Shown here: positions 617 through 22,005 of the stretch, in pieces
Layout of the letters: every line of letters begins with the position of its first letter
Numbering within the stretch: position 1 is the first letter of the stretch
Assembly: GCA_963662575.1 (NCBI GenBank)
Contig: OY759723.1
Coordinates: forward strand, 2,696,340-2,760,339
Reading direction: 5' to 3'
DNA: 64,000 nucleotides
Source: Caldilineaceae bacterium
GTDB taxonomy: Bacteria; Chloroflexota; Anaerolineae; Caldilineales; Caldilineaceae
Position numbers and translations under genes: made by a program
The notes under the pieces: generated by a model
What the model was told of the DNA's origin: nothing
What the model saw: only the letters and a program-made list of their open reading frames with translations
The model's database searches: none

Positions 617-1621
617 ATGAGATCCGTAATCTGCGTCCACGAGCGCTTTGACGCCGACTGGCCATTCGTGGCCGACTTCTGGCAGGAGCGCTGGCAGAGC
701 AGCGGCTGTGAACTTTACCGCACGGAGGAGCCGGACGGACGTGCGCCGCAACTCGTGCCGGACCCAGCTTCAGTGCAGCGCCTGATCCTGCTCGGCCTGC
801 CCGCGGGCAGCGATGACCTTGCGTCCTTTAGTGCGCTTGAGGAGTGCTTCCACAGCTCCTACCGCGACCTGCCGAAAGCTGGACTCGAAGAGGCGGCCGC
901 ACGCGGCGTACACATCGTGCCCCACCGTCCCGAGCTATACTGGGGCCAATCCGTGTCCGAGTACGGCCTGGCCCTTACGCTTGCCGGGCTACGCCGCATT
1001 CCCCAGCTCTACGCCGCGATGATGAAGAGCCATGTGCCCTGGAAATACAGACCGGCCGTTGGCAGACCTGGGCAACGGGGCAGCCAGTTTGGCGATGACG
1101 ACCGGTTTAGCAGCGGTACTCTGGGTGGTAAACGGGTACGCATCGTCGGCGCAGGCAATATCGGCGCCCGTTACGCCTCCTTTTGTGTCGCGATTGGCGC
1201 CGACGTTGCCATCTGGGACCCGTTTGCTCCTGATGCCACTTTTGCCGCGGCTGGCGCAAGACGCTGCTTTCATGTGGCGGAACTTGTGAAAGATGCTGAT
1301 GTCTTCGTGCCGATGGTGCCTCTGAAGGAGGATACGCGCGGGTTGATCGGGAAGGACTTGATCGAAGCCTTGCCGCACGGTTGTCTGGTGGTACAGGTAA
1401 CGCGGGCACTCATCTGTGATACCGAAACGCTCTATCGTCGCGTTCTGAACGATGAACTGGCGCTGGCTGCCGATGTTTTTGACATCGAGCCTGTGCCGCT
1501 GGACAGTCCTCTGCTCGGGCGTCACAACGTGGTTCACACGCCGCATAACGCCGGTCGCACGATTGACGCCAATCGGGCCTGGGTGGACGATCAGATTGCG
1601 CGTTTCAAACCACGTCCTTAA
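617..1621 (+). CDS. D-isomer-specific 2-hydroxyacid dehydrogenase family (glyoxylate/hydroxypyruvate-reductase-like), NAD(P)-binding
   Basis: GKRVRIVGAGNIGARYA Rossmann motif; C-terminal HTPHNAGRT catalytic-His motif; 334 aa, typical length. Confidence 0.8.
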   Translation: MRSVICVHERFDADWPFVADFWQERWQSSGCELYRTEEPDGRAPQLVPDPASVQRLILLGLPAGSDDLASFSALEECFHSSYRDLPKAGLEEAAARGVHIVPHRPELYWGQSVSEYGLALTLAGLRRIPQLYAAMMKSHVPWKYRPAVGRPGQRGSQFGDDDRFSSGTLGGKRVRIVGAGNIGARYASFCVAIGADVAIWDPFAPDATFAAAGARRCFHVAELVKDADVFVPMVPLKEDTRGLIGKDLIEALPHGCLVVQVTRALICDTETLYRRVLNDELALAADVFDIEPVPLDSPLLGRHNVVHTPHNAGRTIDANRAWVDDQIARFKPRP

Positions 1622-1657
1622 GGGATAATTGCCCGTCCATGCCGCGTACGAGAAGGA

Positions 1658-3826
1658 ATGATGAATCCACTGGAATCGGAGTGCCTCGCTTCCTTCGCGG
1701 AAAACTTGCAGAACGACTTCTCAGCGCACATTGGGCGCGGCGAAGCAGAGGCCGCCGAATTGGACCGGTTGCGCGATGCACTGCGCGACACGCTCGACCT
1801 GGGAATTTATGCGCGCGAGGGTATCGAGTGGTACCGGAGCGCCTACGTTGAGGCCTTTCTGTTCATGTACGATACTTCCTTCTATGATCGTGAGGAAGGA
1901 CGTTACCGTATCGACGAGATCCTCGACGACGGCGAGCGCGAGTTCGGCGGGTACGACATTATCCTGCTGTGGCAGTCCTATCCCCGGCTTGGCATTGACA
2001 GCCGCAACCAGATCGATTACTACCGCGACATGCCGGGCGGCTTGCAGGGGCTGCGCGAGGTGGTTGACCGTGCGCATGCGCGCGGCGTGCGCGTCTTCGT
2101 CAACTATAATCCCTGGGACATCGGCACGCGCCGCGAGCCGGGCGCGCCGCCTTATACCGATGCCAGGGGATATCGCGGGAGGTTCCCTGACACCAACGCG
2201 CCCGCGGTGGCCGACGCCGAGGCTCTCGGTGAGGTGATCGAAGCGATCGGTGCGGACGGCGTCTTTCTCGATACGATGGCCTCGGACGACCAGGGGTTTC
2301 GGGCGCCGATGGAGCGGGCCAACCCCAATGTCGTCTTCAACCCGGAGGCCGTGCCCCCGCTCGACGCCCTTTCCTCGATCGCTGGCAGTTGGCTGCAGCG
2401 CAAAACCGCTGTCCCGCCAGACCTATTGACCATCCGCTGGGTGGAGCCGCGCTTCTCCTTTCGAGCTATTGACCGCAACGCCCACGAACACGGCGACATC
2501 ATCCAGAAGGCCTTTTTCCACGGCTGCGGGCAGGTCGTTTGGGAGAACGTCTTCGGCTGGTGGAACCCCTGGCCTGAGGAAGATCGTGCACTGCTGCGTC
2601 GTTGTGTCCGTCTCTTGCGCCAGTACTCGGACGCGTTCCAGGACCAGGGATGGCAGCCCTATGTCGCCACTGAGGTGGAGGGCGTGTACGCGCACCGCTG
2701 GCAAAGCGGTGATCAGGTACTGCATACGTTGATCAACGAGACAGGCGGTCTTGTCGACGGCCCGCTGTTGCGTGCGCCCGCGGCCGCGCCTGACGGCCGC
2801 CCTATGCGCCACTACGACCTATGGAATGGCACAGAAATCGAACCCGATCCGCTAGGTGACGCGCATCTGCTTTCGCTTTCTATGGCCAGCGGCGCGGCGG
2901 GATGTATCGTTTCGGCTCCTGAGGGCATAGACATAGACCTACGATCCGGGTTGGAGGAACCGAAGAAGGAAGGACCCGACGGTATTGACCGCAGGCGCGT
3001 CGGTCTTGCCGACCTGACTCTACGTCCGGTCGGGGCATCGCGCCCGGTCGCGGCTGGTGAAGAACCGGAGGAGATGTGCCAGGTACCTGCGGGCCCCTTC
3101 ATTTTCGGCGTGCGTCACAACAATCGCACGGCGATGGAAGGCGCCTGCTACGGTAAAATGGACCAGCTCTGGGACAAGTACCATCCCAGGGACTTCATCG
3201 ACTTACAAGAATACTGGATCGATCGTACCGAGGTCACGAACGCCTCCTACAGCGCATTTCTCGAACAGACCCGCTACCTGCCGCGCGACCTCACCAACTT
3301 CCTGCGCCACTGGCACAAGCCGGCCGGCAGCGAACGAGAGCCTTGGACATGGAGCCCGCCCGCCGGCAAAGAGCGGCATCCCGTCATCTGGGTGGACCTG
3401 GACGATGCCCGCGCTTACGCGGGCTGGGCGGGCAAACGGCTGCCGCGCGAGGAGGAATGGCAGAAGGCGGCGGGATTTGCCGTGTGGCCCTGGGGTGACG
3501 GCTTTGACCCCTCCCTTTGCAATAGCGGCAGCGACGATACAACCCCTGTCGACCAGTTCCCGGGCGGCGCCAGTTACGTCGGTTGCCTCGATTTGGCCGG
3601 CAATGTCTGGGAGTGGACCGAAAGCGAACGCGACGACGGCCATACGCGCTACGCCATCATCCGCGGGGGCAGCTACTTGAAAATTGAAGGCAGTATCTGG
3701 TACAACGCCAGCGGCGCGCAGCCCAACGACTGCCACGAGAAGATACTGCTGATGTACCCGGGTTTGGACCGCTGCGGCACGGTCGGCTTCCGCTGCGTTA
3801 AGGATGCCGCCCCATCCGCATCGTAG
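1658..3826 (+). CDS. Fusion protein: N-terminal glycoside-hydrolase-like (TIM-barrel-like) region plus C-terminal FGE/SUMF1-fold domain lacking the FGE catalytic cysteines
   Basis: The C-terminal ~240 aa carry WVDLDDARAYAGWAGKRLPREEEWQKAA, GNVWEWTE and RGGSY (FGE-sulfatase fold). The N-terminal part has VFVNYNPWD and GADGVFLDTM strand-like motifs. No signal peptide. Confidence 0.7.
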   Translation: MMNPLESECLASFAENLQNDFSAHIGRGEAEAAELDRLRDALRDTLDLGIYAREGIEWYRSAYVEAFLFMYDTSFYDREEGRYRIDEILDDGEREFGGYDIILLWQSYPRLGIDSRNQIDYYRDMPGGLQGLREVVDRAHARGVRVFVNYNPWDIGTRREPGAPPYTDARGYRGRFPDTNAPAVADAEALGEVIEAIGADGVFLDTMASDDQGFRAPMERANPNVVFNPEAVPPLDALSSIAGSWLQRKTAVPPDLLTIRWVEPRFSFRAIDRNAHEHGDIIQKAFFHGCGQVVWENVFGWWNPWPEEDRALLRRCVRLLRQYSDAFQDQGWQPYVATEVEGVYAHRWQSGDQVLHTLINETGGLVDGPLLRAPAAAPDGRPMRHYDLWNGTEIEPDPLGDAHLLSLSMASGAAGCIVSAPEGIDIDLRSGLEEPKKEGPDGIDRRRVGLADLTLRPVGASRPVAAGEEPEEMCQVPAGPFIFGVRHNNRTAMEGACYGKMDQLWDKYHPRDFIDLQEYWIDRTEVTNASYSAFLEQTRYLPRDLTNFLRHWHKPAGSEREPWTWSPPAGKERHPVIWVDLDDARAYAGWAGKRLPREEEWQKAAGFAVWPWGDGFDPSLCNSGSDDTTPVDQFPGGASYVGCLDLAGNVWEWTESERDDGHTRYAIIRGGSYLKIEGSIWYNASGAQPNDCHEKILLMYPGLDRCGTVGFRCVKDAAPSAS

Positions 3827-3888
3827 GTAGAGGAGAAGAGTTTGGAAGCCGGGCTCCTCGCAGTTCCCATTTCAGTTAAGGAGCGAAG

Positions 3889-4758
3889 ATGACGACCGAC
3901 CTGACACCGGAAGCGCGCATGGCACAACTCACGCAGAATGGCTTCTGCGTCATCGAAAAGGTGGCCGACAGGTGGCTCATGGACAGGACGCGGGCCTGCG
4001 TAGACAAGGCCCTGGCCGAAGTTGACCCCGAACGACTGGCCAAAACCAAGTCCCCCGGCAGCCTGATCGACTCCAACAACTACCCTGAGCTGGCCGATCT
4101 GATAGGCAACCCGCGCGCGCTGGCCGAACTCGACCGCATGGGCGTGAAGGACATTAGGTTCTGGAAGGCGGTGATTATCAGCAAGCCGCCGGGCGGCCCC
4201 CGACTCTACTGGCACCAGGACTGCCTGATGTGGCAGGACCCGCGCGCCTACAGTGACAGGCCGCCGATGATCTTCCTGATGTACTACATGGAGGACACGA
4301 CGCGACAGAACGGCTGCCTGCGCCTTTTGCCCGGCACCCACCGCTACCGTCACATCCTTCACGACATGGGGGAGGCGCACACCAGAGAGATCAACCGCAT
4401 CGACGACCCGGACGACCCGCGTTTCCGCGACTATCCCGGCGAGGTCGATGTGCCGGTCAAGGCGGGGGATGTGGTGGTTGGCGACGCGCGCATGTTCCAC
4501 TCGGCGCACACAAACCTTTCTGACGATAAACGGACGGTGATCACCATCTGGTTTCACCCGTTCTATACCGACCTGCAGGAGCCGACGCAGAGTTGGATCC
4601 ACGACTACATGCACAGGCAGCACGCCAACTGGCCGCAGGAGGCGCTGGCCAAGATCGAGCCGCTCATCCCCGACTATCGCGGCGGGGTCGCGCCGATGGA
4701 GCAGAATCGAATGCCTGATGAGCGCTTGCGCTGGCCCGAGACGGTGGCAGCCGGCTAG
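3889..4758 (+). CDS. Phytanoyl-CoA dioxygenase (PhyH) family Fe(II)/2-oxoglutarate dioxygenase
   Basis: LYWHQDCLMWQD (HxD), PGTHRY, distal His in FHSAHTN; AAGGAG RBS before the ATG. Confidence 0.8.
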   Translation: MTTDLTPEARMAQLTQNGFCVIEKVADRWLMDRTRACVDKALAEVDPERLAKTKSPGSLIDSNNYPELADLIGNPRALAELDRMGVKDIRFWKAVIISKPPGGPRLYWHQDCLMWQDPRAYSDRPPMIFLMYYMEDTTRQNGCLRLLPGTHRYRHILHDMGEAHTREINRIDDPDDPRFRDYPGEVDVPVKAGDVVVGDARMFHSAHTNLSDDKRTVITIWFHPFYTDLQEPTQSWIHDYMHRQHANWPQEALAKIEPLIPDYRGGVAPMEQNRMPDERLRWPETVAAG

Positions 4759-4859
4759 CCGCAAAGCGCCTGCATCGGAGGACCATGCCCGGCGTCCCCG
4801 CGATTTTCATCGGGCTGACAGGACATGTACAAACTCCCAACCCTCCCCAGGAGATAGAG

Positions 4860-5651
4860 ATGAAGATTCTTATCACCGGCATCACCGGCAAGATTGGCCG
4901 CTACCTGGCGCCGTTACTTGCCCGCGACCATGAGGTCTCTGGCATTGACATTCTCCCCTCGGACTGGCCCAGTTCTACCCAGGCCGACCTCTGCGACGCC
5001 GACGCGCTGCCGCCCGTCTTCGAGGGCATGGACGTGGTCATCCATCTGGCTGCCGACCCCCGCCACGAGGTCGAGATCGGCTGGGATGAGCTGACCAACC
5101 CCAACCTGATCGCCACGGCCAGAATGTACGACGCGGCTCACGATGCCGGTGTGGGGAGGGTCATCTTCGCGAGTTCGATGCACGTCATGGGCGCATACGA
5201 GTGGGATGAGCCGTACTTCTCCATCCTTTGCGGCCGCCACGACGGCCTGGACCCGGCCGCCATCCCACTGGTCAAAGGGGATGATCCGGGCAGGCCGGAC
5301 AGCCGCTACGGCGCCACTAAGATATTCGGCGAGTCGTTGGGCCGCTATTACACCGAGGGCGGCAACATCGACCGCCCTGAAGAGCGTCCGATGGAGGTCA
5401 TCTGCGTCCGTCTTGGCACGCTGCCGGCCTCCGATCGTCCCGGTGGTGACTATCGCTCGCTGGTGAGCTGGTTCAGTTATCGCGATGCGGGCGGCTTCTT
5501 TCGGGCCTGCGTTGAGCGGCCTGGCATCAGCTATGAGATCATCTACGGCGCGTCCAACAATAAGTGGAAAATTTACGACACGCCCTACGCGTGGGAGCTG
5601 CTGGACTTCATGCCCGTCGACAGGGCGGAAGACCACTGGCGCAAAGAGTAA
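4860..5651 (+). CDS. Short NAD(P)-dependent SDR (epimerase/dehydratase-like), cassette copy 1
   Basis: MKILITGITGKIG (GxxGxxG) and SRYGATK (YxxxK). The true ATG at 4860 follows CAGGAGA; the upstream extension of ORF 4785 was rejected. Confidence 0.85.
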   Translation: MKILITGITGKIGRYLAPLLARDHEVSGIDILPSDWPSSTQADLCDADALPPVFEGMDVVIHLAADPRHEVEIGWDELTNPNLIATARMYDAAHDAGVGRVIFASSMHVMGAYEWDEPYFSILCGRHDGLDPAAIPLVKGDDPGRPDSRYGATKIFGESLGRYYTEGGNIDRPEERPMEVICVRLGTLPASDRPGGDYRSLVSWFSYRDAGGFFRACVERPGISYEIIYGASNNKWKIYDTPYAWELLDFMPVDRAEDHWRKE

Positions 5652-5701
5652 CCGACATCGCCCCGCCTACACCGCGGCGCAACACGGGAGGACAACCGAT
5701 C

Positions 5702-6598
5702 ATGACAGTTGGAGAAGGCGATTTTCGCTACGAACTGGACGATTCCTGGCCGATACTGCCAGAAGGATGGTCGCTCGGCTCTGTGCCCGATCTGGCGATC
5801 GATTCGCGGGATCGCGTCTTTGTCTTCTGCCGCCATAAACATCCCGTCGTCGCCTTTGAGGCGGAGACCGGGAAATTCATCACCTCCTGGGGTGAAAATG
5901 AATTCACTGAGCCGCACGGCATCTTCATCGACGCCGACGACTACGTGTGGGTCACCGACCGGCAGGAGCACGTGGTCACCAAGCACACGCAGCATGGTGA
6001 GAAACTGCTCGAACTGGGCCGCCGCGGCTGGGCCATGATGACGGTGACGCCCTACGGCACCTCCTTGGACCCGCCCTTCAACATGCCGGCCGGCGTGGCC
6101 ACCGCCGAGGACGGTTGCATCTTCGCGGCCGACGGCTACGGCAACCGCCAGGTCCACCGCTTTTCCGCGGAGGGCGAGCTGGAAGTGTCGTGGGGGACGT
6201 CCGGCCTGGAGCCGGGCCAGTTCGCGCTGGTACACAATATCGGCATCGACACGCAAGGCCGGGTTCTTATCTGCGACCGCGAGGCCAACCGCATCCAGCT
6301 CTTCGATCGCGATGGGAATTTCATTACTATGTTTGAAGATGTACACCGGCCTGGCGACGTGTACTGCAGCCCCGACCAGTTCGTCTATGTCGCCGAACAG
6401 GGCAGCGCATTTGGCAAGGGGCCTCTCCCCTGCGGCATCTCCATCTTCCATGAATCGGGCGAGCTGGTCTGCCGCTTCCGCGGCCCCGAAACTGGACTGC
6501 GCATGCCGCACGGCATCTGGTGTGATTCGAAAGGAAACATCTTTGTGGCCGAGCTGGGCGAAGAAGGCAACCGTGCGCGCAAGTTTGTCAAAGTGTGA
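5702..6598 (+). CDS. NHL-repeat six-bladed beta-propeller resembling peptidyl-alpha-hydroxyglycine alpha-amidating lyase (PAL), cassette copy 1
   Basis: Motifs PHGIFID, DGYGNRQVHRF, PGQFALVHNIGID, CDREANRIQLF and MPHGIWCD. ATG at 5702 inside ORF 5564. No signal peptide. Confidence 0.75.
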   Translation: MTVGEGDFRYELDDSWPILPEGWSLGSVPDLAIDSRDRVFVFCRHKHPVVAFEAETGKFITSWGENEFTEPHGIFIDADDYVWVTDRQEHVVTKHTQHGEKLLELGRRGWAMMTVTPYGTSLDPPFNMPAGVATAEDGCIFAADGYGNRQVHRFSAEGELEVSWGTSGLEPGQFALVHNIGIDTQGRVLICDREANRIQLFDRDGNFITMFEDVHRPGDVYCSPDQFVYVAEQGSAFGKGPLPCGISIFHESGELVCRFRGPETGLRMPHGIWCDSKGNIFVAELGEEGNRARKFVKV

Positions 6599-6794: not shown

Positions 6795-7586
6795 ATGAAA
6801 ATTCTACTCACCGGCATCAGCGGTACAGTCGGCAGCTTGCTGGCGCCCGAACTTGGTCGCGACCACGAAGTGTCCGGCGTGGACCTGCGTCCCTCCGACT
6901 GGCCGAACGCGACGCAGGCCGACCTCTGCGACCCGGACGCCCTGCCCCCCATCTTCGAAGGCATCGACGTAGTCGTCCACCTGGCCGCTGACCCGCGGCA
7001 CGAGGTCGAAATCGGCTGGGAAGAGCTCACCAACCCGAATCTGATCGCCACCGCGCGCATGTACGACGCTGCCCATGACGCGGGCGTGCGTCGGGTCATC
7101 TTCGTCAGCTCGATGCACACAATGGGCGGTTACGAGTTTGACGAGCCTTACTTGTCGATCGTTTCCGGCCGCGTGGACGGCCTCGACCCGGCCTCCATTC
7201 CCCTGGTCAAGGGCGATGACCCGGCCAGGCCGGACAGCCGCTACGGGGCGACCAAGATATTCGGCGAGTCCCTGGGCCGCTACTATACCGAGGGCGGCAA
7301 CATCGACCGCCCTGACGAGCGCCCGATGGAGGTCATCTGTGTACGGCTTGGAACGTTGCCCCGGTCCAACCGGCCTGAAAAGGACTACCGTTCGCTGGTG
7401 AGCTGGTTCAGCCGGCGCGACGCGGTCGGCTACTTCCGGGCCTGCGTTGAGCAACCCGGCATCAACTATGAGATTATCTACGGTGCATCCAACAATACGT
7501 GGAAAATCTATGACACACCCTACGCCTACAATCTGTTGAATTTCGTTCCTCAAGACAACGCTTCAGAACACTGGGGCAAGGAATAA
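6795..7586 (+). CDS. Short NAD(P)-dependent SDR (epimerase/dehydratase-like), cassette copy 2
   Basis: Paralog of 4860-5651 with the same GxxGxxG and YxxxK motifs. Confidence 0.85.
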   Translation: MKILLTGISGTVGSLLAPELGRDHEVSGVDLRPSDWPNATQADLCDPDALPPIFEGIDVVVHLAADPRHEVEIGWEELTNPNLIATARMYDAAHDAGVRRVIFVSSMHTMGGYEFDEPYLSIVSGRVDGLDPASIPLVKGDDPARPDSRYGATKIFGESLGRYYTEGGNIDRPDERPMEVICVRLGTLPRSNRPEKDYRSLVSWFSRRDAVGYFRACVEQPGINYEIIYGASNNTWKIYDTPYAYNLLNFVPQDNASEHWGKE

Positions 7587-7600
7587 CAGGAGGTCTACCA

Positions 7601-8479
7601 ATGCTGACCGTTGGACATGGCGATTTTCGCTTCCAGCAGGACGATACCTGGCCCACTCTGCCAGAAGGGTGGATTATGGATCATCCTTCCGGTATTGCGG
7701 TTGATTCGCACGATCGGGTCTATGTATTTAATCGCAACAAGCACCCAATGATCGTCTTCGAGGCCGACACTGGTGAGTTTGTTACATCCTGGGGCGAAGG
7801 CGAATTCAAGGAGCCGCACGGCATCTTCATCGACGACGAAGACCATGTTTGGACCACTGACCGCAATGACCACACCGTCGTCAAGTACACGCGCTACGGC
7901 GAGAATCTGCTCGAACTGGGCACGCGCGGCTGGGCCAATATGACGGTAACGCCGCAGGGCACGACGCTCGATCCGCCGTTCAACATGCCGGCCGGCGTAG
8001 CCATCGCCGAGGACGGCTGCATCTTTGTTGCCGACGGTTATGGCAACCGGCAGGTTCATCGTTTCTCAGCGGGAGGCGAATTGGAGCTCTCGTGGGGAAC
8101 GTCGGGGACGGAGCCGGGTCAGTTCGCGCTGGTGCATAACATCGGCATCGACACGCAGGGGAGAGTACTGGTATGTGACAGGGCAAACCATCGCATTCAG
8201 TTTTTCGACCACGAAGGGCAGTTCATTCAGATCTGGGACGATGTCCAAGCACCAGGCGGTGTCTACTGCAGTCCCGAGGGCGTGATCTACGTCGCCGAAC
8301 AGGGCGGTGGTGGTTCCGTCTCGATCTTCAGTGAAGACGGCGAACTGATTTGCCGCTTTACCGGCGAGAAAGCCGGCCTGCGCGGTGTGCACAGCGTCTG
8401 GATCGATTCGAAGAAGAACCTCTTCATTTCGGAGCTGAGTCACCACGGTCATTGTGTGCAGAGATATGCCAAGATCTAA
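7601..8479 (+). CDS. PAL-like NHL beta-propeller, cassette copy 2 (most diverged copy)
   Basis: PHGIFID, DGYGNRQVHRF, VHNIGID and DRANHRIQFF are retained, but the last motif is GVHSVWID instead of MPHGIWCD. 292 aa. AGGAGG RBS. Confidence 0.75.
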   Translation: MLTVGHGDFRFQQDDTWPTLPEGWIMDHPSGIAVDSHDRVYVFNRNKHPMIVFEADTGEFVTSWGEGEFKEPHGIFIDDEDHVWTTDRNDHTVVKYTRYGENLLELGTRGWANMTVTPQGTTLDPPFNMPAGVAIAEDGCIFVADGYGNRQVHRFSAGGELELSWGTSGTEPGQFALVHNIGIDTQGRVLVCDRANHRIQFFDHEGQFIQIWDDVQAPGGVYCSPEGVIYVAEQGGGGSVSIFSEDGELICRFTGEKAGLRGVHSVWIDSKKNLFISELSHHGHCVQRYAKI

Positions 8480-8824
8480 CTGCGGGAAGTGCCGAGCCAG
8501 CCAGTCGGCATCCTGAGAGCGCGGCCTCCTACTGTTGAGCGAAGCTATGGCAGACCGAGATGGGGGGGTTGCCCCGCCTGACCAGGCAGGGGTGAGACGG
8601 AAACGCGCCCGCACTTTGCAGACACGCCAGACCTATCTATCTCGCAGGCAATGCGGGGTCGTGAATGTGCCAGAATCCCAAGAGTCCTGGCTCAGGCTAC
8701 GGCTGCACGACGCATCCGGAGACAGCCTCTGCATCGCAGCCGATCCGCCGGCAGATGGCGCACACGCCCAGAGACAGAAAGTGACTCACCGCCCCATATT
8801 GGGTATATGGTATTTTTCGCGCGC

Positions 8825-8853
8825 TTGACATCGCTGTAATTCCTATGGATAAT
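8825..8853 (+). promoter_or_regulatory. Near-consensus sigma70-like promoter (TTGACA-N17-GATAAT) about 30 nt upstream of cassette copy 3
   Basis: Read directly in the 403-nt spacer between copy 2 and copy 3. Confidence 0.4.
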
Positions 8854-8882
8854 TCACTCAAAACCCCCTGCAGGAGACAGTC

Positions 8883-9674: not shown

Positions 9675-9725
9675 CTTTTACCCCTGCGCGCCGCGGCTGC
9701 GCGCCACATCGGAGGACAACAGATT

Positions 9726-10622: not shown

Positions 10623-10742
10623 CGGCGAGCGGCATAGAACCGCGGACTGTCCACAGACTGAAGAAGCGCGGAACGTTAGGAAATGGGTTGAATCCCTTCT
10701 TGAAACCGCGTTTACCGAGCCTTACGAGGAAGAACTGAACCG

Positions 10743-12074
10743 ATGAACGCGACAGCACCGCCGATAGCCGGTCTCTGCACGTATGCGCAGGGCGGCAAGC
10801 CGGGCTTCAGTGTTGAACGCACAGTACAGTTGCTGCGGCGCTATCTGTTTGTCGAGAGCCAGACGATGCGCTGTCTGGTCGCCCATCTGAACGGCGTGCC
10901 GGAGTGGGAGGTGAAGTGCGGCCTCTCGCTCCATCTGTGGCAGGACGCAGAACATTGCACCTGGCTGCGCGACCGGGTCAAGGAGATGCGAACGCCGCCC
11001 CTCCACCTGGACCGCATCCCTGACCCGGCCCTGGACGCCTTCTTCCAGGAGTTGATCCGTTCCCGCAACACGTTTGAGCTTCTGACCGGCGTATACCGGG
11101 TGCTCAAACCGGCCAGCATCGCGGCGATGCGGGGTCATCTTGCCGAAGCGAATCCGCTGGCCGATCAACCTACGCGGCGCCTGCTCAGGTTCATACTGCT
11201 GGAGGAAGAAGAGCAGCTCGCCTGGGGCGATCTCGCGCTGCACAGCTTGGTCAGTAAAGAAGACAATAGAGCAGCGGTCGAGGCAGGGGAACAGTGGACC
11301 GCGCATTTGCAGGCATACCTGGATGCCGCAGGCGGCATCGCCGCCGATGGTGAACGGGCAACGGAGAACGAGCTGCCGCCGGCCCGAGCAGTGGAGCCAT
11401 TCAACCCAATCCGGACACCGCAAAGAGATGAACGCTTTAACCGCGTGTGGCATTCACGCGGGCGCCCCCCTAACGCCGACATCTCCGCCAGCGAGCGAAA
11501 CTGGTTTCAACTATACATGCGGCTGACTGAAATGCACGTCCCTGAACTGATGGCATTGATCATCTACGACTGGGACGACCAACCCTGGGCGTTTTACCAC
11601 GACATGGCTCGCCAGCTCTGGGATGAGGCGCGCCACGCCATGATGGGCGAGATTGCGTTCGAATTGAGTGGTTTGGATTGGGCGGCGGTTCCGCACGAAA
11701 TCAGCTTTGGCGAATTTCCTAATACGCAACTCGAGCCCGCGGACCGACATTGCCTTCTGTGGGGGATCGAACAGGGGCTGATGAAACCGGACGGGAAACA
11801 ACGTGAGTACAAGCTCGCCCGCGAATCGGGCGACCCGCTGTCGATTACGTTTCAAGATTTTGATTGGGCTGACGAGGTACTGCATGCCCAGATAGGACGC
11901 AGATGGCTGCTGCCAGCCTTTGAATCGATGGAGGCAATGCAGCAGCGCTATGAAGAAGTCCTAGCGCGCTTTCAGGCTATCCTCGACCAGGATCAAGCGT
12001 TGCCAAGAGCAGAGTGGTGGGATGCCTTTTATCAGCAGGTACCTCGCCAAGAAAAACAGGAGGAACCAGTTTGA
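10743..12074 (+). CDS. Hypothetical protein, possible ferritin-like / dimetal-carboxylate fold
   Basis: Helical, with E/H-rich motifs LWDEARHAMMGE and DWADEVLHAQIGRRW. No signal peptide. The family assignment is tentative. Confidence 0.4.
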   Translation: MNATAPPIAGLCTYAQGGKPGFSVERTVQLLRRYLFVESQTMRCLVAHLNGVPEWEVKCGLSLHLWQDAEHCTWLRDRVKEMRTPPLHLDRIPDPALDAFFQELIRSRNTFELLTGVYRVLKPASIAAMRGHLAEANPLADQPTRRLLRFILLEEEEQLAWGDLALHSLVSKEDNRAAVEAGEQWTAHLQAYLDAAGGIAADGERATENELPPARAVEPFNPIRTPQRDERFNRVWHSRGRPPNADISASERNWFQLYMRLTEMHVPELMALIIYDWDDQPWAFYHDMARQLWDEARHAMMGEIAFELSGLDWAAVPHEISFGEFPNTQLEPADRHCLLWGIEQGLMKPDGKQREYKLARESGDPLSITFQDFDWADEVLHAQIGRRWLLPAFESMEAMQQRYEEVLARFQAILDQDQALPRAEWWDAFYQQVPRQEKQEEPV

Positions 12075-12209
12075 CGAGTTGTTCGGTACTTTGCCTGGCG
12101 CTGACGCCTGGCGGGGAACTCGAACGCATTGAACCAGACCATTAGCCAGAGGTGAATCCATCCAATTGACCCACAGGTATTTTCTCATTTCCACAAAGGA
12201 GGAGGAGAG

Positions 12210-14273
12210 ATGAAGCAGACCAAGTTTTCGTGGCTGTTGGGGATCGTGATGGTAGTAGCTCTTGTACTTTCGGGGTGTGCCGGCGCAGCCGAGCCTGCCG
12301 AACCGGCCGAGGAAATGGCCGCCCCAGCCGAGGAGGCGGAAGAGTCTTCCGAGCTACCTCAGATTGTCCCGATTGAAGGGCCTGACATCATCCTCGATGA
12401 GGCAATGTGGCCCACGGCATTCAGTGAAGCGCCGATGCTGGCTGAGATGGTTGCAGCAGGCGATCTGCCGCCGGTCGAGGAACGCCTGCCGTCAGATCCG
12501 ATGGTCATCAAGCCTTTGAATGAAATCGGCAAGTACGGCGGAACCTGGCGGCGCGGCTTCACTGGCCCGGCCGACGGCGAGAACATGATGCGCATCAATA
12601 ACTCGTCGAGGCTGCTCGCCTGGGACTACTCCGGTTCCTACATCGTACCCAGCCTGCTCGCGGGTTGGGACATTCAGGATGACAGTCGCAAGTACATCCT
12701 CTATCTCCGTGAAGGCGCCAAGTGGTCCGATGGCATGCCATTCACCGCCGACGATTTCCTCTTCTGGTACGAGGACGTCGCCCTGAACGAGGATATCTTC
12801 CCCAGCCCGCCGCCAGAAATGGTTATCGCCGGCGAACCGGGCCTGATGGAAAAGATTGACGACTATACGATCTCCTACACGTTTAAGGAGCCGTATCCCC
12901 TTTTCCTCGACATTCTTGCAGGCCATAACATGGTGGCGGCTGCGCCCGAGGGCAGCCTGGGAACAGGTGGCGGCGGATACGCGGCCAAGCATTACATGAG
13001 CCAGTTCCTTCCGAAATACTCCTCTGAGGAGGAAGTGACCGCAATGGCCGAGGAGTTGGGATTCGAGAGTTGGCTGGATATGTACCTCTTCCATTCCTAT
13101 CCCGCCCGCAACGCTGATCTGCCCGTGATGAGCCCCTGGGTCACAGATCGCCCCGTCATCGATCCGATCTGGGTGATGAAGCGCAACGCCTACTACTGGG
13201 CGGTCGACACGGAAGGCAATCAGCTCCCTTACATTGACGAGATCGTGATCAATCTTGCCGAGGATAGAGAAGTCCTCCTCCTGCGCGCCCTCGCAGGAGA
13301 AATTGACTTCCAGGGTCGCCACATCAGTATCTCGAGGCTGCCCGTCCTTATCGAGAACATGGATACAGGCGACTACCGGGTCGATATCGGCCGTGGATTC
13401 TGTCATTCGGCCGGTTTCCACTTCAACCACAGTTACGACGGTGACGCCGAGGTCCAGCAGTGGATACGAAACGTAGAGTTCCGCCGCGCCCTCTCTCTGG
13501 GGATCGATCGCGACCAGATCAACGAGGCCTACTTCCTGGGGCTGGGCGTGGGTGGCTCGGTGATGTGTTCACCCGACCTGCCCTCAACCGCAGGTGAAGA
13601 GTTCGTGACAAGGTGGGCTACCCACGAGCCCGATCAGGCCAACGAAATGCTTGACGCCATCGGGCTGACCGAGATGGACGACGAAGGTTACCGGCTGCGG
13701 ACGGACGGCTCCGGAGACCGGCTGCGCATTGAGATTGGCATGGTTGCAGGCGGCAACGAGCCGATTGCCGAAATGGTGAAAGACCACTGGAAGGATATCG
13801 GCATCTGGGCAGACCTCAAGGCCCAGGAGCGCAGTCTGTTCGAGACGGAAGCTCGCGCCAACAAGCACCAGATCGGAATTTGGGGCAACGGCGGCGCTTC
13901 GCAACTCTGGCTCTACCCCCGCCACGTCTTGCCTGTAAATACGAACGAGGCGTACATGGGACCGGAGATCGCCAGATGGTTCGTCAGCGGCGGCGAGGAT
14001 GGCATGGCGCCGCCCTATCCAGAGATGGAAAGGGCGCTCGAACTGTTCAGGCAGGGCGCCTCCGTGTCCGCCGAAGAGCGCAATAAGATCGGCCAGGAGA
14101 TCTGGAGTCTCGTGGTTGACCAGGTTTGGAGCATGGGTACGGTCGGCCAGTCAGCAGGAGTCTCCGTTACCAAGAACAACATGGGCAATGTTCCGCGGCG
14201 CGGCTGCCCGGCTCAGCACTGCCGGACGCCTGCCAGCGGCCATCCGCCGTCCTGGTACTTCACCGATCAGTAG
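12210..14273 (+). CDS. ABC transporter substrate-binding lipoprotein, family 5 (peptide/nickel/opine type), importer 1
   Basis: Lipobox LSGC after a signal peptide, an acidic Ala/Glu/Pro linker, 687 aa, and genomic context with DppBCDF-like genes. AAAGGAGGAGGAG RBS. Confidence 0.85.
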   Translation: MKQTKFSWLLGIVMVVALVLSGCAGAAEPAEPAEEMAAPAEEAEESSELPQIVPIEGPDIILDEAMWPTAFSEAPMLAEMVAAGDLPPVEERLPSDPMVIKPLNEIGKYGGTWRRGFTGPADGENMMRINNSSRLLAWDYSGSYIVPSLLAGWDIQDDSRKYILYLREGAKWSDGMPFTADDFLFWYEDVALNEDIFPSPPPEMVIAGEPGLMEKIDDYTISYTFKEPYPLFLDILAGHNMVAAAPEGSLGTGGGGYAAKHYMSQFLPKYSSEEEVTAMAEELGFESWLDMYLFHSYPARNADLPVMSPWVTDRPVIDPIWVMKRNAYYWAVDTEGNQLPYIDEIVINLAEDREVLLLRALAGEIDFQGRHISISRLPVLIENMDTGDYRVDIGRGFCHSAGFHFNHSYDGDAEVQQWIRNVEFRRALSLGIDRDQINEAYFLGLGVGGSVMCSPDLPSTAGEEFVTRWATHEPDQANEMLDAIGLTEMDDEGYRLRTDGSGDRLRIEIGMVAGGNEPIAEMVKDHWKDIGIWADLKAQERSLFETEARANKHQIGIWGNGGASQLWLYPRHVLPVNTNEAYMGPEIARWFVSGGEDGMAPPYPEMERALELFRQGASVSAEERNKIGQEIWSLVVDQVWSMGTVGQSAGVSVTKNNMGNVPRRGCPAQHCRTPASGHPPSWYFTDQ

Positions 14274-14398
14274 AAGCTGGAACGCATCTGCCCTGGTCTT
14301 ACTGGGGGCGATGCCGCGAAACTTACCTGTTAGAGGCTGATTCACTCCTTCAGCCCTGACCATGTAGTGAGTATGTCGAGGTCAAACGCGTATGAACT

Positions 14399-14431
14399 CT
14401 CCCGGGCGCCCCAGTTGGGTGTGCCCGGGAG
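14399..14431 (+). other. Intercistronic stem-loop after the SBP gene (9-bp GC stem CTCCCGGGC/GCCCGGGAG with an inner CCCA/TGGG stem)
   Basis: Complementarity read directly; no U-tract follows. Confidence 0.5.
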
Positions 14432-14491
14432 TGTCATGCGCACCAACTGCACGAATCGCGTCGTTTTGCTGCCTTTCGCGGAGACTGTAGG

Positions 14492-15481
14492 ATGCTTGCT
14501 TACCTTGCCCGTCGCGCCGTCTTTGCCATCTTTACGTTGTGGGCTGTCTCGGTGCTCTCCTTCATCATCATCCAGCTCCCTCCCGGGGACTTTGTCGACG
14601 CCTACATGGCTCAATTGGCTGTCATGGAGACCGATGTCTCGGAGCAGCAGATGGAGGCCATGCGCCGCCAGTATGCCCTGGACAGGCCCATTCACGAACA
14701 GTACCTGAGATGGATTGGAAATATGGTCCAAGGCAACTTCGGCGTATCCATGCTGTGGAAGCAGTCGGTCCGCGATGTGATCGGAGACAGGCTTGCGATG
14801 ACCATGGCCGTCTCACTGGGGGCGGTCCTGCTTACCTGGGCCATTGCCGTGCCCATCGGAATCTATTCGGCAGTGCGTCAGTATTCGATCGGCGATTATG
14901 TTTTCACCTTTGTCGGTTTCATCGGTCTGGGGGTACCCAATTTCCTTCTGGCGCTGGTGCTTATGTACCTGGGTTTCTACCTTTTCGGGGCGAATGTTGG
15001 CGGTCTGTTTTCGCCGGAATTCCAACTGGAACCGTGGAGTTGGGCCAAAGTGAAGGACTTGCTCTATCATCTCCCCCTGCCCGCCTTTGTTGTCGCCCTC
15101 AGCGGTACCGCCGAGTTAATCCGGGTACTGCGTGCGAATCTGCTTGACGAGCTGCGCAAGCCCTATGTGATCACGGCGCGGGCGATGGGGCTGGCCGAGC
15201 ACCGCCTGATCCTGAAGTTTCCGGTGCGCGTCGCTCTCAATCCCTTTGTCAGCACGATCGGCTATCTGTTGCCCTACATCCTGTCCGGCAGCGTTATCGT
15301 CTCGGTCGTTTTGAGCCTGCCGACGGTTGGGCCGATTCTCCTTGGTTCCCTTATCGCACAGGATATGTTCCTGGCTGGGACGATTGTCCTGATGCTCGGC
15401 TCGATGACCGTCATCGGCACTTTTTTGTCCGACATGCTGCTGATGTGGATCGATCCCCGTATTCGTCTGGGTATGATTTAG
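14492..15481 (+). CDS. ABC transporter permease (DppB/OppB-like), importer 1
   Basis: MLAYLARRAVFAIFTLWAVSVLSFIIIQLPPGD N-terminus and multiple TM segments. Confidence 0.9.
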   Translation: MLAYLARRAVFAIFTLWAVSVLSFIIIQLPPGDFVDAYMAQLAVMETDVSEQQMEAMRRQYALDRPIHEQYLRWIGNMVQGNFGVSMLWKQSVRDVIGDRLAMTMAVSLGAVLLTWAIAVPIGIYSAVRQYSIGDYVFTFVGFIGLGVPNFLLALVLMYLGFYLFGANVGGLFSPEFQLEPWSWAKVKDLLYHLPLPAFVVALSGTAELIRVLRANLLDELRKPYVITARAMGLAEHRLILKFPVRVALNPFVSTIGYLLPYILSGSVIVSVVLSLPTVGPILLGSLIAQDMFLAGTIVLMLGSMTVIGTFLSDMLLMWIDPRIRLGMI

Positions 15482-15538
15482 CAAGGGGAAAATCGTGGTT
15501 GGCATCCGACGTCTGTTTCCCTATTTGTCCTCACGGCA

Positions 15539-16681
15539 ATGACCACTGAGCATAGACTAGGCGTAGGTGAAGATCTTGTAACTGTCGACAGCGAAGAGCG
15601 AATCTTCGTTGCCGGTCAGATGCAACTGATGTGGTGGCGGTTTCGCAAGCACCGCGTCGCAGTTGCGGCAACGGTAATTGTCGCTGCCTTCTACATCGTT
15701 GTGCTGGGCGCTGATTTCTTTGCCTACACGGACCCTGAATCGACCGAAGCCTACCGCTCCTTGATGCCGCCTCAGCCTGTTCGCTTCTTTGACGACGGTA
15801 GATTCAGCCCCCATGTCTACCAAGTCGATGGAAAACGGGACCTAAGAACATTCAAGCGAGTCTACGAGGCAAATCCTGACCGCAAGTTTCGGGTTCGCCT
15901 CTTTGCACGCGGCTACAAATACGATTTCCTGGGATTCATTCCGTCTGACCTCCATCTGTTCGGCGTTGAGGGCGCCAGCGTGGAGGAGTCTCTGTTCATC
16001 CTTGGAACGGACTCGTTGGGCCGCGATGTCTGGTCCCGGCTCATACATGCCTCCCGCACCTCCCTGACGATTGGACTGATCGCGGTTGCACTCAGTCTCG
16101 TGCTGGGGGTGATTCTAGGTGGGATTTCGGGCTTTTACGGAGGTGTCGCAGATAACATTATCCAGCGCCTCATCGAGATACTTCGCTCGATTCCTACCAT
16201 TCCGTTGTGGATGGGGCTGGCTGCAGCCGTGCCCAGACAGTGGAGCGTTGAGCAGGTCTACTTTGCCATTACAATCGTTATCGCGTTGCGGGGCTGGACG
16301 GGTCTGGCACGAGAGGTGCGCGGCCGCTTCCTTTCACTGCGCGAGGAGGATTTTGTGACAGCCGCGGAATTGGCCGGTTGCAGCCGCAAACGCATCATTT
16401 TCCGCCATATGGTGCCCTCCTTCCAGAGTCACATCATCGCTACCGTCACCTTATCTGTGCCTGCCATGATTCTGGCAGAGACGGCGTTGAGTTTTCTCGG
16501 GCTGGGTCTGCGCCCGCCTGCCATCAGTTGGGGGGTCATGCTCCAGCAAGCACAGAATGTAGAGACGGTCGCGCTGTCGCCCTGGCTGCTGTTGCCAGCG
16601 ATCCCCGTCGTTGTCGTGATCCTGGCCTTCAACTTCATGGGAGACGGATTGCGAGACGCAGCCGATCCTTATGGGATTTGA
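15539..16681 (+). CDS. ABC transporter permease (DppC/OppC-like with N-terminal extension), importer 1
   Basis: TM-rich, LGTDSLGRDVWSRL motif, C-terminal MGDGLRDAADP. Confidence 0.9.
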   Translation: MTTEHRLGVGEDLVTVDSEERIFVAGQMQLMWWRFRKHRVAVAATVIVAAFYIVVLGADFFAYTDPESTEAYRSLMPPQPVRFFDDGRFSPHVYQVDGKRDLRTFKRVYEANPDRKFRVRLFARGYKYDFLGFIPSDLHLFGVEGASVEESLFILGTDSLGRDVWSRLIHASRTSLTIGLIAVALSLVLGVILGGISGFYGGVADNIIQRLIEILRSIPTIPLWMGLAAAVPRQWSVEQVYFAITIVIALRGWTGLAREVRGRFLSLREEDFVTAAELAGCSRKRIIFRHMVPSFQSHIIATVTLSVPAMILAETALSFLGLGLRPPAISWGVMLQQAQNVETVALSPWLLLPAIPVVVVILAFNFMGDGLRDAADPYGI

Positions 16682-16729
16682 AATCATGTTTATTGGTGCT
16701 ACCTCCATAGACAATCGGCCACATTAACT

Positions 16730-17764
16730 ATGCAGAACGACCAGCAGCCGATCCTGTCGGTGCGCAACTTGAAAACGAGCTTTTTCACCGATGAGGGAGT
16801 CGTCCGCGCCGTCGACGGCGCCAGCTTTGACGTTCACCTCGGCCAGACACTCGGCATAGTGGGTGAAAGCGGCTGTGGAAAGAGCGTAACCTCTCTTTCT
16901 ATTCTCCGCATCGTTCCTCGCCCCGGCCGCATTGTGGAGGGGGAGATTCTCCTGCGGCGGGAGACTGAAGGCGGCCAATTGCAGGAGGTGGCCCTGACTT
17001 CTCTGGGCGAGAACAGCAGAGAGATGCGTTCGATTCGCGGTGCGGAGATTGCGCTCGTTTTCCAGGAGCCAATGACTTCCCTCAGCCCAGTTCACACGAT
17101 CGGCAACCAGATAATCGGAGCCGCCCGTCTGCACCGCCAACTCTCGAAGCAGGAAGCGCGGGAGATGGTGATCGAACTGCTTGGCCTTGTGGGGATTGCC
17201 CGGCCCGAGACAGCCGTGGACTCCTATCCAATGCAGCTTAGCGGCGGTATGCGCCAGCGCGCCTTAATCGCTCTGGCCCTTTCCTGCGATCCCAGAATCC
17301 TGATTGCCGACGAACCGACGACCGCCCTGGACGTGACCACCCAGGCACAAATACTCGATCTCCTGCGCTCGCTGCAGGAGCAGAAGGGGTTGGCAATCAT
17401 GCTGATCACCCACAATATGGGAGTGATCGCGGAGATGGCCGACCAAGTCGTGGTGATGTACCTGGGTCGCGTGGTGGAGGAAGGGCCAGTCGACGTCGTC
17501 TTTGGGGAATCGAAGCATCCTTACACACAGTCGCTGCTGCGCTCGATCCCCAGCATACATTCGACGCCCAAGGTGCAGTTGCCCACGATCAGCGGGACCA
17601 TTCCCCACCCATACAACCGGCCGACCGGGTGCCCATTCCACCCCCGCTGCCCGGACGTAATTCCGGGTGTCTGCGACCAGCATGAGCCTGAGCTACATTC
17701 GATTGGAGATCAGCACCTGGTGAGCTGTTTCCTCTATCATCCGGTACCGGAAACCAACGAGTAG
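16730..17764 (+). CDS. ABC transporter ATP-binding protein (DppD/OppD-like)
   Basis: Walker A GESGCGKS, signature LSGGMRQR, Cys-rich oligopeptide-transporter C-terminal domain. Confidence 0.92.
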
Positions 17765-17816
17765 CGGTCTGTTTCGACTACGGGTCAACAGCCCCCGTCA
17801 GTCACCGACTGGAATA

Positions 17817-18860
17817 ATGGAAGACGATCAAGTACTGCTGGAAGTAAAAGGGCTACAGAAATTCTTCCCGATTCGGAAGGGCTTCCTGCAACGCGCAGTT
17901 GGCCAGGTCCGCGCGGTTGACGGCATAGATTTTCGCGTTTACAAGGGGGAGACTTTCGGCATTGTCGGAGAGAGCGGCTGCGGCAAGACGACCGCCTCCC
18001 GCTGTATCGTGCGGGCGCTTCAGCCTTCGGCCGGAGAAATCTTCTTCCGCGTCGACGACGGTGAATTGACTGACATCGCCAATCTGTCCAGGGACGAACT
18101 GCAACCCCTGCGCCGCCACATGCAGATGATCTTCCAGGACCCCTTCTCCTCGCTGAACCCGCGCATGACCCTTTTCGACATAATCGGCGAACCGTTGCTC
18201 GTGCACGGGATGACGGCCCGCCAGCAACGAATCGAACGCGTGGAGGAGTTGCTTGGCCTGGTGGGACTGCGACCCGAATTCCTGCAACGCTTCCCTCACG
18301 CCTTCAGCGGCGGCCAACGCCAGCGGATCGGCATCGCCCGTGCGCTCGCTCTCAATCCGAGCCTGATTGTGGCCGACGAGCCGGTGTCGGCGCTCGATGT
18401 GTCCGTGCAGGCGCAGATCCTGAACCTACTGCTGGAGTTACAGGGGCGCCTCGGCCTCACCTATCTGTTCGTGGCGCACGATCTCAGCGTCGTCAAGCAT
18501 ATCTGCGACCGCGTCGCCGTCATGTATGTCGGGCGCGTGGTCGAGACTGCAGAGACGAAGCAACTCTTTGAATCGCCGAAACACCCTTACACCGAAGCCC
18601 TGCTCTCCGCCGTGCCCCAGCCGGATCCGAGCCTGCGAACGCAGCGAATCATCCTGGAGGGCGAAGTGGCGGACCCCGCCAACCCGCCGTCGGGTTGTTA
18701 TTTCCACCCGCGCTGCCGCTACGCCGTCGACCTCTGCCGCGAGGAGACTCCCGAACTTGAAGAGGTTGCGCCAGGCCACGCGGTGAGCTGTCACCGTGCG
18801 CGAGAATTGGACCTGGTGGGCACTCTGGACGCGCCCGTTCCACAGGCAGCGCACTCGTAG
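17817..18860 (+). CDS. ABC transporter ATP-binding protein (DppF/OppF-like)
   Basis: Walker [10 protein letters not shown], signature FSGGQRQR, C-terminal CYFHPRC motif. Confidence 0.92.
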
Positions 18861-21985: not shown

Positions 21986-22005
21986 TTGAATGAGAATATA
22001 CTCCG

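Follow-up and report, generated by a model that had tools for sequence, protein, structure and literature searches.

A Caldilineaceae gene cluster pairing PAL-family propellers with uronate dehydrogenase-like oxidoreductases: a possible oxidative route for anionic sugars

A 64,000-nucleotide stretch of the Caldilineaceae contig OY759723.1 (the window) carries at 617-18860 a run of 15 plus-strand open reading frames (ORFs), in which three short-chain dehydrogenases/reductases (SDRs) alternate with three NHL propellers (NHL1-3) upstream of an ATP-binding cassette (ABC) importer. The propellers belong to the family of the animal peptide-amidating enzyme PAL (peptidyl-α-hydroxyglycine α-amidating lyase) and not to the SMP-30 type of lactonase, and their partner SDRs are most similar to uronate dehydrogenase (Udh) and to the haloarchaeal glucose-6-phosphate dehydrogenase Azf. 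We give about even credence to a reading in which the locus serves to import an anionic glycoside or oligosaccharide and to break it down by an oxidative (non-phosphorylative) route, with the PAL-family zinc propellers in the slot usually filled by a lactonase. Both the substrates and the lactone activity are ones that we infer; the imported compound might, for example, contain a uronate or a 6-substituted sugar.

The three dehydrogenase-propeller pairs

The genes of the three pairs, with one promoter-like site among them, are as follows.

4860-5651, plus strand: SDR1; the ORF opens at 4785; Pfam Epimerase 9.5e-21; NCBIfam Azf 1.4e-39, below cut-off
5702-6598, plus strand: NHL1, a six-bladed NHL propeller of the PAL family; Zn(His)3/Tyr/Arg2 site kept and Met784 equivalent present
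6795-7586, plus strand: SDR2, a Udh/Azf-like extended SDR; TGxxGxxG and YxxxK motifs; NCBIfam Azf 4e-41
7601-8479, plus strand: NHL2, a PAL-family propeller; the paralogue used for the AlphaFold model
8825-8853, plus strand: sigma-70-like promoter match (11/12), in the 403-bp gap before SDR3
8883-9674, plus strand: SDR3, a Udh/Azf-like extended SDR (Pfam, NCBIfam)
9726-10622, plus strand: NHL3, a PAL-family propeller (Pfam and alignment)

A preliminary description of this DNA had reported 15 co-directional genes at 617-18860; the ORFs lie where it placed them and its labels agree with Pfam. It had also listed three copies of a short SDR followed by an NHL propeller. The three pairs are present, but the dehydrogenases are extended SDRs, with Udh and Azf as their best relatives, and not classical short SDRs. 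The SDRs are 81-88% identical to each other and the propellers 65-85%, and the pairs are recent tandem duplicates. Intergenic gaps across the cluster measure 14-218 bp, with the sole exception of the 403 bp (8480-8882) between NHL2 and SDR3. The sigma-70-like match in this non-coding gap, just upstream of SDR3, may be an internal promoter, sigma-70-like sites in the region being no more numerous than expected by chance from shuffled sequence. The start of SDR1 is more likely at 4860 (MKILITG) than at 4785, and the start of NHL1 at 5702 is correct. The propeller N-termini begin directly with the first strand, and on reading, with no signal predictor run, the N-termini of the enzymes show no obvious signal sequence.

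The relationship of the propellers to PAL is seen in both structure and sequence. A model of NHL2 built with AlphaFold (AF2) from a 50-sequence alignment has a mean pLDDT of 94.8, and a Foldseek search of the PDB with this model placed rat PAL (PDB 3fvz) at rank 1 (E = 2.4e-17, TMq 0.80). Eukaryotic TRIM/Thin NHL domains occupy the ranks below, and no SMP-30-type (SGL) lactonase structure appears within the top 50. At the sequence level, PAL is the only PDB protein matched full-length, as a single stretch and in register (profile E = 6e-38; 239-282 positions). The repeats of TRIM and of the designed "Pizza" NHL proteins outscore PAL in sequence searches solely through one repeat matched many times, and they still rank above it when half-length queries are searched against PDB sequences. 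Pfam SGL matches to the propellers are short fragments with no significant stretch. SGL lactonases use acidic and Asn metal ligands, and the propellers differ from them in having no significant in-register SGL match.

To compare active sites, the PAL catalytic core (PALcc) was represented by a sequence 100% identical to residues 7-329 of 3fvz, which correspond to PAM 498-820, and was placed on the family hidden Markov model by hmmalign. Identity between PAL and the propellers of the cluster is about 22%. In the 2009 structure paper on PALcc, His585, His690 and His786 reportedly bind the zinc ion, Tyr654 is said to be catalytic, and Arg533 and Arg706 are said to bind the substrate. The three histidines align with H73, H179 and H264 of NHL2 and are invariant in the homologues (50/50), as is the tyrosine, aligned with Y147 (50/50), while Arg533 aligns with R45 (kept in 46/50) and Arg706 with R194 (48/50). 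All of these residues are present in each of the three paralogues. The structural Ca2+ site of PAL reportedly includes Asp787, and Met784 is said to lie near the active site. The aspartate is not kept, being Ser in NHL2 and Gly in NHL1 and NHL3 (and Gly in 41/50 homologues), and the methionine is kept in NHL1 and NHL3 only, with Ala in 30/50 homologues. The preliminary description had matched the propellers to the PAL catalytic core by eye, an alignment now confirmed residue by residue. It had named as the contrary outcome that the best matches would be propellers of the lactonase/SMP-30 type, with metal, Tyr and Arg positions that do not superimpose; the profile and structure comparison it proposed instead puts 3fvz at the top, with the zinc histidines, the tyrosine and the arginines aligned.

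The propellers share with animal PAL, their best Foldseek match, a six-bladed NHL fold and the conserved Zn/Tyr/Arg residues. They differ from it in having no obvious signal peptide and no PHM partner, in the replaced Ca2+ ligand and variable Met784, and in their genes being paired with a sugar-type dehydrogenase, joined in relatives by dehydratase and aldolase genes. At E<=1e-10, a homologue search retrieved 2,469 members of this NHL family from bacteria and archaea. Where named, they belong to Chloroflexota (Caldilineaceae, Dehalococcoidia, SAR202), Poribacteria and Planctomycetes, with further phyla added by a genome scan, and the closest matches are from Caldilineaceae metagenome-assembled genomes (MAGs). 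Literature searches on bacterial PAL-like enzymes, NHL-type lactonases, and PAL in Chloroflexi or sponge symbionts found nothing relevant. On one Dehalococcoidia contig (L089, 11130-14500), a znuABC zinc-uptake operon and a fur-family regulator adjoin three NHL/PAL-like paralogues, an arrangement that fits a zinc dependence of the propellers.

The SDRs, of about 263-265 amino acids, are of the extended type, with an N-terminus of the form MKILxTGxxGxxG and a YGATK motif that aligns with YGLSK of Udh. The best PDB matches of SDR2 are uronate dehydrogenases (6mfh, 3rft and 3ay3; E = 1e-25 to 2e-23), and the best NCBIfam model for the SDRs is that of Azf (E = 1e-39 to 4e-41). Their scores of 133-141 bits against an equivalog cut-off of 400 do not reach the level at which the same substrate is expected. 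Udh and Azf both oxidise the anomeric C1 hydroxyl of a pyranose with an anionic group at C6, giving the 1,5-lactone. In the oxidative uronate pathway of A. tumefaciens, Udh operates with Gli and Gci, and the known partners of Udh are SMP-30/gluconolactonase or amidohydrolase proteins. The gene for the uronate dehydrogenase of Pseudomonas putida, PP_1171, adjoins that for the glucurono-1,5-lactonase, PP_1170 (PMC9007349). The cluster described here resembles the latter arrangement in that the gene for an extended SDR of the Udh family directly precedes that for another enzyme, in P. putida a lactonase, and an orthologous cluster (L008, below) adds enolase-superfamily and aldolase genes. Unlike in P. 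putida, this other enzyme is a PAL/NHL propeller with a Zn(His)3 site, which belongs to no known lactonase family. The SDRs are also only distant relatives of Udh, below the cut-off for Azf, and the pairs are three in tandem, with no dehydratase or aldolase in the window.

Gene neighbourhoods of related propellers

We compared 92 NHL loci, cited here by their L numbers; a genome scan gave about 590 loci, of which 80 were taken. The SDR and the propeller remain adjacent in L001, L003/L004, L006, L007, L008, L086/L087 and L088, whatever else varies around them, so that a Udh/Azf-like SDR is the constant partner of the NHL clade found in the window. The other genes are far less constant. The preliminary description had proposed a survey for the co-occurrence of PhyH, NHL, 2-hydroxyacid dehydrogenase (2-HADH) and family-5 ABC genes, and such co-occurrence is seen in part. 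The full set (2-HADH, FGE fusion, PhyH, SDR/NHL, DUF455 and the ABC system with its solute-binding protein, SBP) recurs only in two Caldilineaceae MAGs, L006 and L007. The 2-HADH and PhyH genes are kept in one further sample (L086/L087), which lacks the fusion and an intact DUF455 gene, whereas L001, L008, L003/L004 and L088, which are homologous clusters, contain none of the three genes for 2-HADH, PhyH and the FGE fusion. L001 keeps only an SDR, two propellers and the ABC system. Transposases interrupt L002 and L086/L087.

L008 offers the plainest sugar-acid setting for the window's NHL clade. This Chloroflexota MAG locus has a 54% identical propeller, a homologous ABC system and two SDR/NHL pairs (block 7523-17791). 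Its genes run in the order ABC, SGSH-like sulfatase, SDR, NHL, HpcH aldolase, NHL, SDR, MR_MLE, MR_MLE, Epimerase-type SDR, MR_MLE. Judged by gene content, this would be the gene set of an oxidative dehydrogenase/lactonase/dehydratase/aldolase route, in which the propellers are the only candidates for the lactone enzyme. MR_MLE or HpcH genes lie within 10 kb of the propeller in about 20 of the 92 loci and directly beside it in about eight, such as L005, L010, L012, L017, L021 and L060, and PfkB, FGGY and RraA-type aldolase genes are also found near NHL loci. Among 142 immediate neighbours of 78 more distant NHL homologues, no single partner dominates. The commonest are MFS/sugar transporters, Zn-ADH, luciferase-like oxygenases, MR_MLE, SDR and HpcH, and no copper monooxygenase occurs among the 25 commonest of the 110 families represented.

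Other neighbourhoods are of a different kind. In L003/L004 and L088, the SDR and NHL genes occur with a class-III aminotransferase and an S15 peptidase, and in L003/L004 also with an Asp/Glu-type racemase. L003 and L004 lie on the same 4.08-Mb contig (489938-510834 and 3838329-3859225), so that one block (SBP-permeases, RecQ, SDR, NHL, aminotransferase, S15 peptidase and racemase) is present twice, each copy beside IS21-type and McrBC genes. It is a large recent duplication or a mobile segment. Genes for 2-HADH flank the NHL genes in L034, L050 and L070, where the contexts are otherwise uninformative. At L014 (7689-12629), from a distant uncultured bacterium, a PhyH gene and the NHL gene are divergently oriented neighbours, and genes for MR_MLE, HpcH and an FGGY sugar kinase lie close by; the link between PhyH and NHL may thus recur outside Caldilineaceae, but within a sugar context.

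The flanking genes and a candidate route for anionic sugars

The genes on either side of the three pairs are as follows.

617-1621, plus strand: D-isomer 2-hydroxyacid dehydrogenase family protein (2-HADH), 334 amino acids; Pfam 2-Hacid_dh_C 4e-32, with only the NAD domain recognised
1658-3826, plus strand: GH-like/FGE-fold fusion, 722 amino acids; Pfam FGE-sulfatase over residues 471-714 (PF03781, 1.8e-37); N-terminal part of about 430 residues, a barrel plus β-sandwich
3889-4758, plus strand: PhyH Fe(II)/2-oxoglutarate dioxygenase; Pfam PhyH 1.7e-24; HxD...H motif (WHQDC...FHSAH)
10743-12074, plus strand: ferritin-like (DUF455-like) protein, 443 amino acids; Pfam DUF455 at 28.7 bits against a cut-off of 34.3; ExxH motifs
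12210-14273, plus strand: lipoprotein SBP, 687 amino acids; Pfam SBP_bac_5, family 5 (cluster C, large type); LSGC lipobox
14492-16681, plus strand: two ABC permeases of the OppB/OppC type (Pfam)
16730-18860, plus strand: two ABC ATPases with an oligo_HPY C-terminal region (Pfam)

The second gene of the cluster encodes a two-part protein. An AF2 model of residues 1-460 (pLDDT 89) shows a TIM barrel and a β-sandwich, and every Foldseek match to this part is a glycoside hydrolase, including the GH13 neopullulanase (2.7e-14) and GH27. The barrel and β-sandwich (1658-3037) have no Pfam model and are always joined to an FGE-fold domain without the catalytic cysteines; judged from the modelled fold, this N-terminal domain may represent an unclassified glycoside hydrolase family. 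The C-terminal 250 residues share the fold of FGE, EgtB and SenA, as the match to PF03781 indicates, but the protein differs from these in having neither the FGE cysteine pair nor a DinB domain and in being joined to the GH-like barrel. The catalytic cysteine pair (CxxxxC) of FGE binds Cu(I), and no such pair occurs in the C-terminal domain sequence of the fusion. A role as a sulfatase maturase was rejected because the pair is missing, and identity with EgtB or SenA because the NCBIfam matches are partial and far below cut-off. Fusions of this family, about 700 residues long, are found in several phyla, and three of their loci (L090-L092) place them among GH116, GH172, GH127, GH31, GHL6, PfkB, GFO_IDH_MocA and sugar ABC genes.

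The importer has the architecture of an Opp/Dpp system (SBP_bac_5, OppB/C permeases and two oligo_HPY ATPases), and its relatives include a putative oligopeptide binder as well as saccharide binders. The best PDB relative of the SBP is T. maritima OppA (5ipw, 3e-107), followed by SPH1118, a binder of oligogalacturonides and pectin that is matched full-length (5e-86). The α-galactoside binder AgpA follows at 3e-31, and DppA at only ~8e-9. SPH1118 comes from Sphingomonas sp. A1, and the residues with which it binds pectin and oligogalacturonides have been described (PMC9314435). Like the SBP of that system, the one encoded here is a large cluster-C family-5 protein annotated as an oligopeptide binder, and it keeps 5 of the 12 SPH1118 ligand residues checked, four of them arginines (equivalents of Arg57, Arg294, Arg466, Arg496 and Glu505). 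It differs from SPH1118 in being closest to T. maritima OppA and in having no equivalents of the other seven, namely the stacking Trp594, Arg438, Asn53, Glu216, Asn324, Asp483 and Phe592.

At least four family-5 ABC systems are encoded in the 64-kb window, at 12210-18860 (plus strand) and at 20034-23613, 35458-39206 and 59161-62844 (minus strand). The genes beside them include a GH32 gene (33775-35301), three BNR_2 genes (32083-33699, 56120-57286 and 63008-63928) and a PfkB gene (54756-55769), and such systems seem to serve sugar uptake in the source genome. The preliminary description had called the transporter a peptide-type importer, and the step from a family-5 transporter to a peptide substrate was rejected in view of the kinship with SPH1118 and the carbohydrate-type neighbours in the window. 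A PIG-L gene (27414-28277) and a GFO_IDH_MocA gene (24030-25157) also lie near family-5 ABC systems of the window.

All NCBIfam equivalog matches of the 2-HADH fall far under their cut-offs, the best being PGDH at 92.8 bits against 454, and the protein is far below the cut-off of every glyoxylate-reductase model. Its gene stays adjacent to that for PhyH in L006, L007 and L086/L087. The PhyH protein has no equivalog match, and its best PDB relative is EvdO2, a sugar-acting orthosomycin oxygenase, at only 2e-8. Two further PhyH paralogues lie in the window at 25195-26412 and 26500-27318 (minus strand), between the GFO_IDH_MocA and PIG-L genes; standing beside catabolic genes, they indicate that PhyH is common here and not confined to the NHL cluster. 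For the ferritin-like protein, neither a PDB sequence relative nor an NCBIfam match was found. Its gene is intact in the window and L007, while L001 (~12204) and L086/L087 (L086 10907-11374) hold small ORFs or a weak remnant, located between NHL and SBP. This pattern suggests that the gene is undergoing decay and is dispensable in relatives.

A candidate route can be assembled from these parts. The lipoprotein SBP and ABC transporter would import the compound, which the GH-like/FGE-fold fusion, to judge by its fold, might then cleave. The three Udh/Azf-like SDRs would oxidise the anomeric C1 hydroxyl of the released sugars to 1,5-lactones, a substrate suggested by their family. The three PAL-family zinc propellers would process these lactones, by hydrolysis or by 1,5-to-1,4 isomerisation, replacing the SMP-30 or amidohydrolase lactonases of known pathways; this role is proposed because each propeller gene directly follows an SDR gene and because of the orthologous clusters. 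More speculatively, PhyH, 2-HADH and the ferritin-like protein could be clade-specific accessory or tailoring enzymes, one option being 2-keto-aldonate reduction. The Zn(His)3 site, which can be viewed as a classical hydrolytic centre, would activate water or polarise the lactone carbonyl, and the conserved arginines would bind the anionic group of the substrate. By analogy, the anionic group of a uronolactone would sit α to its ester oxygen and so reproduce the acyl-X-CH(COO-) arrangement of the N-acyl-α-hydroxyglycine substrate of PAL.

The reading as a sugar-acid pathway is favoured because the kin of the SDRs oxidise C1 of C6-anionic pyranoses to lactones, and because of the constant SDR-NHL adjacency, the Udh-lactonase pair of P. 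putida, L008, the MR_MLE/HpcH neighbours, the GH-like second gene, the SPH1118-like SBP and the carbohydrate-type genes beside other family-5 ABC systems of the window. On this reading, the cluster belongs as a variant with the oxidative sugar catabolic operons, unusual in the PAL-family enzyme at the lactonase position and in the unclassified GH-like/FGE-fold protein. Several points weigh against it. In the literature searched, no lactonase activity is reported for any PAL-family protein, and the active site, which has the PAL lyase residues in full, Tyr654 and the two arginines among them, suits a lyase no less well than a hydrolase. The window genes scanned include neither a dehydratase nor an aldolase for sugar acids, and the neighbours in L003/L004 and L088 are not typical of a sugar context. 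According to its description, 5ipw, the best relative of the SBP, binds oligopeptides, and the SBP does not keep the stacking tryptophan of SPH1118. Finally, the proposed route leaves PhyH, 2-HADH and the ferritin-like protein without an explained role.

Other readings of the locus and remaining genes of the window

The complete PAL lyase site could also be taken at face value. It is possible, though we judge it unlikely, that the propellers are true PAL-type C-N (or C-O) lyases that work with the SDRs and not with PhyH. In a scheme modelled on ureidoglycolate dehydrogenase and its lyase, a carbonyl of the N-oxalyl/imide or lactam-like type and a carbinolamide or hemiacetal would be interconverted by the SDR, whose substrate might otherwise be an N-glycosyl amide or a derivative of an amino sugar. 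Cleavage of the C(OH)-X bond would then fall to the propeller. The carbon on which Udh-type SDRs act carries a hydroxyl and a heteroatom, as is established for Udh and Azf, and the aminotransferase and S15 peptidase genes of L003/L004 and L088, together with the racemase gene (Asp/Glu/hydantoin-type) of L003/L004, suggest a nitrogen-containing substrate. However, the chemistry is one that we infer, no earlier case was found in which an SDR forms or uses up carbinolamides alongside a PAL-type enzyme, and L008 and many other loci place the propellers with dehydratase and aldolase genes.

A second alternative, which we regard as quite unlikely, is that the cluster does not encode a single pathway. 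In a region packed with catabolic islands, a conserved SDR, NHL and ABC module would have been joined in one Caldilineaceae lineage to unrelated catabolic genes, namely those for 2-HADH, the GH-FGE fusion, PhyH and the ferritin-like protein. The modular composition of the related loci is consistent with such a mosaic, L001 being without 2-HADH, PhyH and the fusion and L086/L087 without the fusion and an intact DUF455 gene. The transposases in L002 and L086/L087, the 403-bp gap with its promoter-like site inside the cluster, and the further islands of the window, of which there are at least four, point the same way. Opposing it are the tight spacing of the genes, all on one strand, and the persistence of 2-HADH and PhyH beside SDR/NHL in the related loci that carry them. 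The FGE-fusion family is, moreover, independently tied to sugar catabolism, which is compatible with one carbohydrate pathway.

The two remaining alternatives bring PhyH to the centre. In the broader one, which we consider improbable, the propellers would be C-X lyases acting on the product of PhyH and the 2-HADH would reduce the released 2-oxoacid, giving a cytoplasmic, copper-independent counterpart of PHM plus PAL. PhyH would hydroxylate a carbon bearing both a heteroatom (N or O) and a carboxylate, such as a carboxymethyl group, an N-acylglycine-type conjugate or C5 of a uronoside. In a milder version, the PAL-fold enzymes may be a new class of zinc sugar lactonases, and the bacterial family may be ancestral to animal PAL.

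The narrower one is the pathway of the preliminary description, a copper-independent analogue of PAM. The imported compound, a glycine-extended peptide or an N-acylglycine, would be hydroxylated at its α-carbon by PhyH (or the ferritin-like protein); the PAL-like propellers would split the carbinolamide into an amide and glyoxylate, the latter being reduced by the 2-HADH. The observation in that description that no PHM-like gene is present stands, in that no copper-monooxygenase family was found among the window genes scanned. The fully conserved PAL catalytic residues and PAL as best structural match would suit such a pathway. So would an Opp/Dpp-family transporter, the 2-HADH and PhyH genes that adjoin SDR/NHL in the window, L006, L007 and L086/L087, the divergently adjacent PhyH of L014, and the 2-HADH genes flanking NHL in L034, L050 and L070. 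The pathway gives no role to the three SDRs, the constant partners of the NHL clade, and its other enzymes have a narrow association with the propellers, 2-HADH, PhyH and the fusion being absent from L001, L008, L003/L004 and L088. Nothing ties PhyH functionally to the propellers: its paralogues are common in the window, and L014 also has MR_MLE, HpcH and FGGY genes. Related NHL genes sit in a context of sugar-acid catabolism, and gene 2, which the preliminary description had listed as an FGE-fold fusion, has a glycoside-hydrolase-like barrel at its N-terminus and homologues in sugar loci. The 2-HADH falls far below every glyoxylate-reductase cut-off. Dealkylation of carbinolamides is spontaneous above neutral pH (PMC6529398), and the need for three lyases in the cytoplasm is therefore not obvious. 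Poorly supported on these grounds, the sequence of hydroxylation, cleavage and glyoxylate reduction is very improbable.

For the 2,469 NHL/PAL-like proteins, a large family with a misleading name, the locus and related loci offer a function that can be tested, in the biochemical setting of a propeller paired with a Udh/Azf-like dehydrogenase in a proposed sugar-acid pathway. If the propellers are lactonases, they would represent a new catalytic use of the Zn/Tyr/Arg site of PAL and a hint at the origin of the animal amidating lyase, while if they are lyases, bacteria would possess a previously undescribed PAL-type dealkylation step. The locus also draws attention to the GH-like/FGE-fold fusion family of about 700 residues, with its barrel outside Pfam, and indicates that "oligopeptide" family-5 ABC transporters in such genomes, which are probably of Caldilineaceae, should not be taken as peptide importers by default.

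Outside 617-18860, the window holds at least four further catabolic/transport islands. Three long ORFs, all on the minus strand, have no Pfam match at E<=1e-4 (28427-30025, 532 amino acids; 47399-49879, 826 amino acids; 57332-59086, 584 amino acids). A block at 39377-46006, also on the minus strand, encodes an M19 dipeptidase, a DAO-family FAD oxidoreductase, a β-keto-acid cleavage enzyme (BKACE), two Zn-ADH-type dehydrogenases and a classical SDR.

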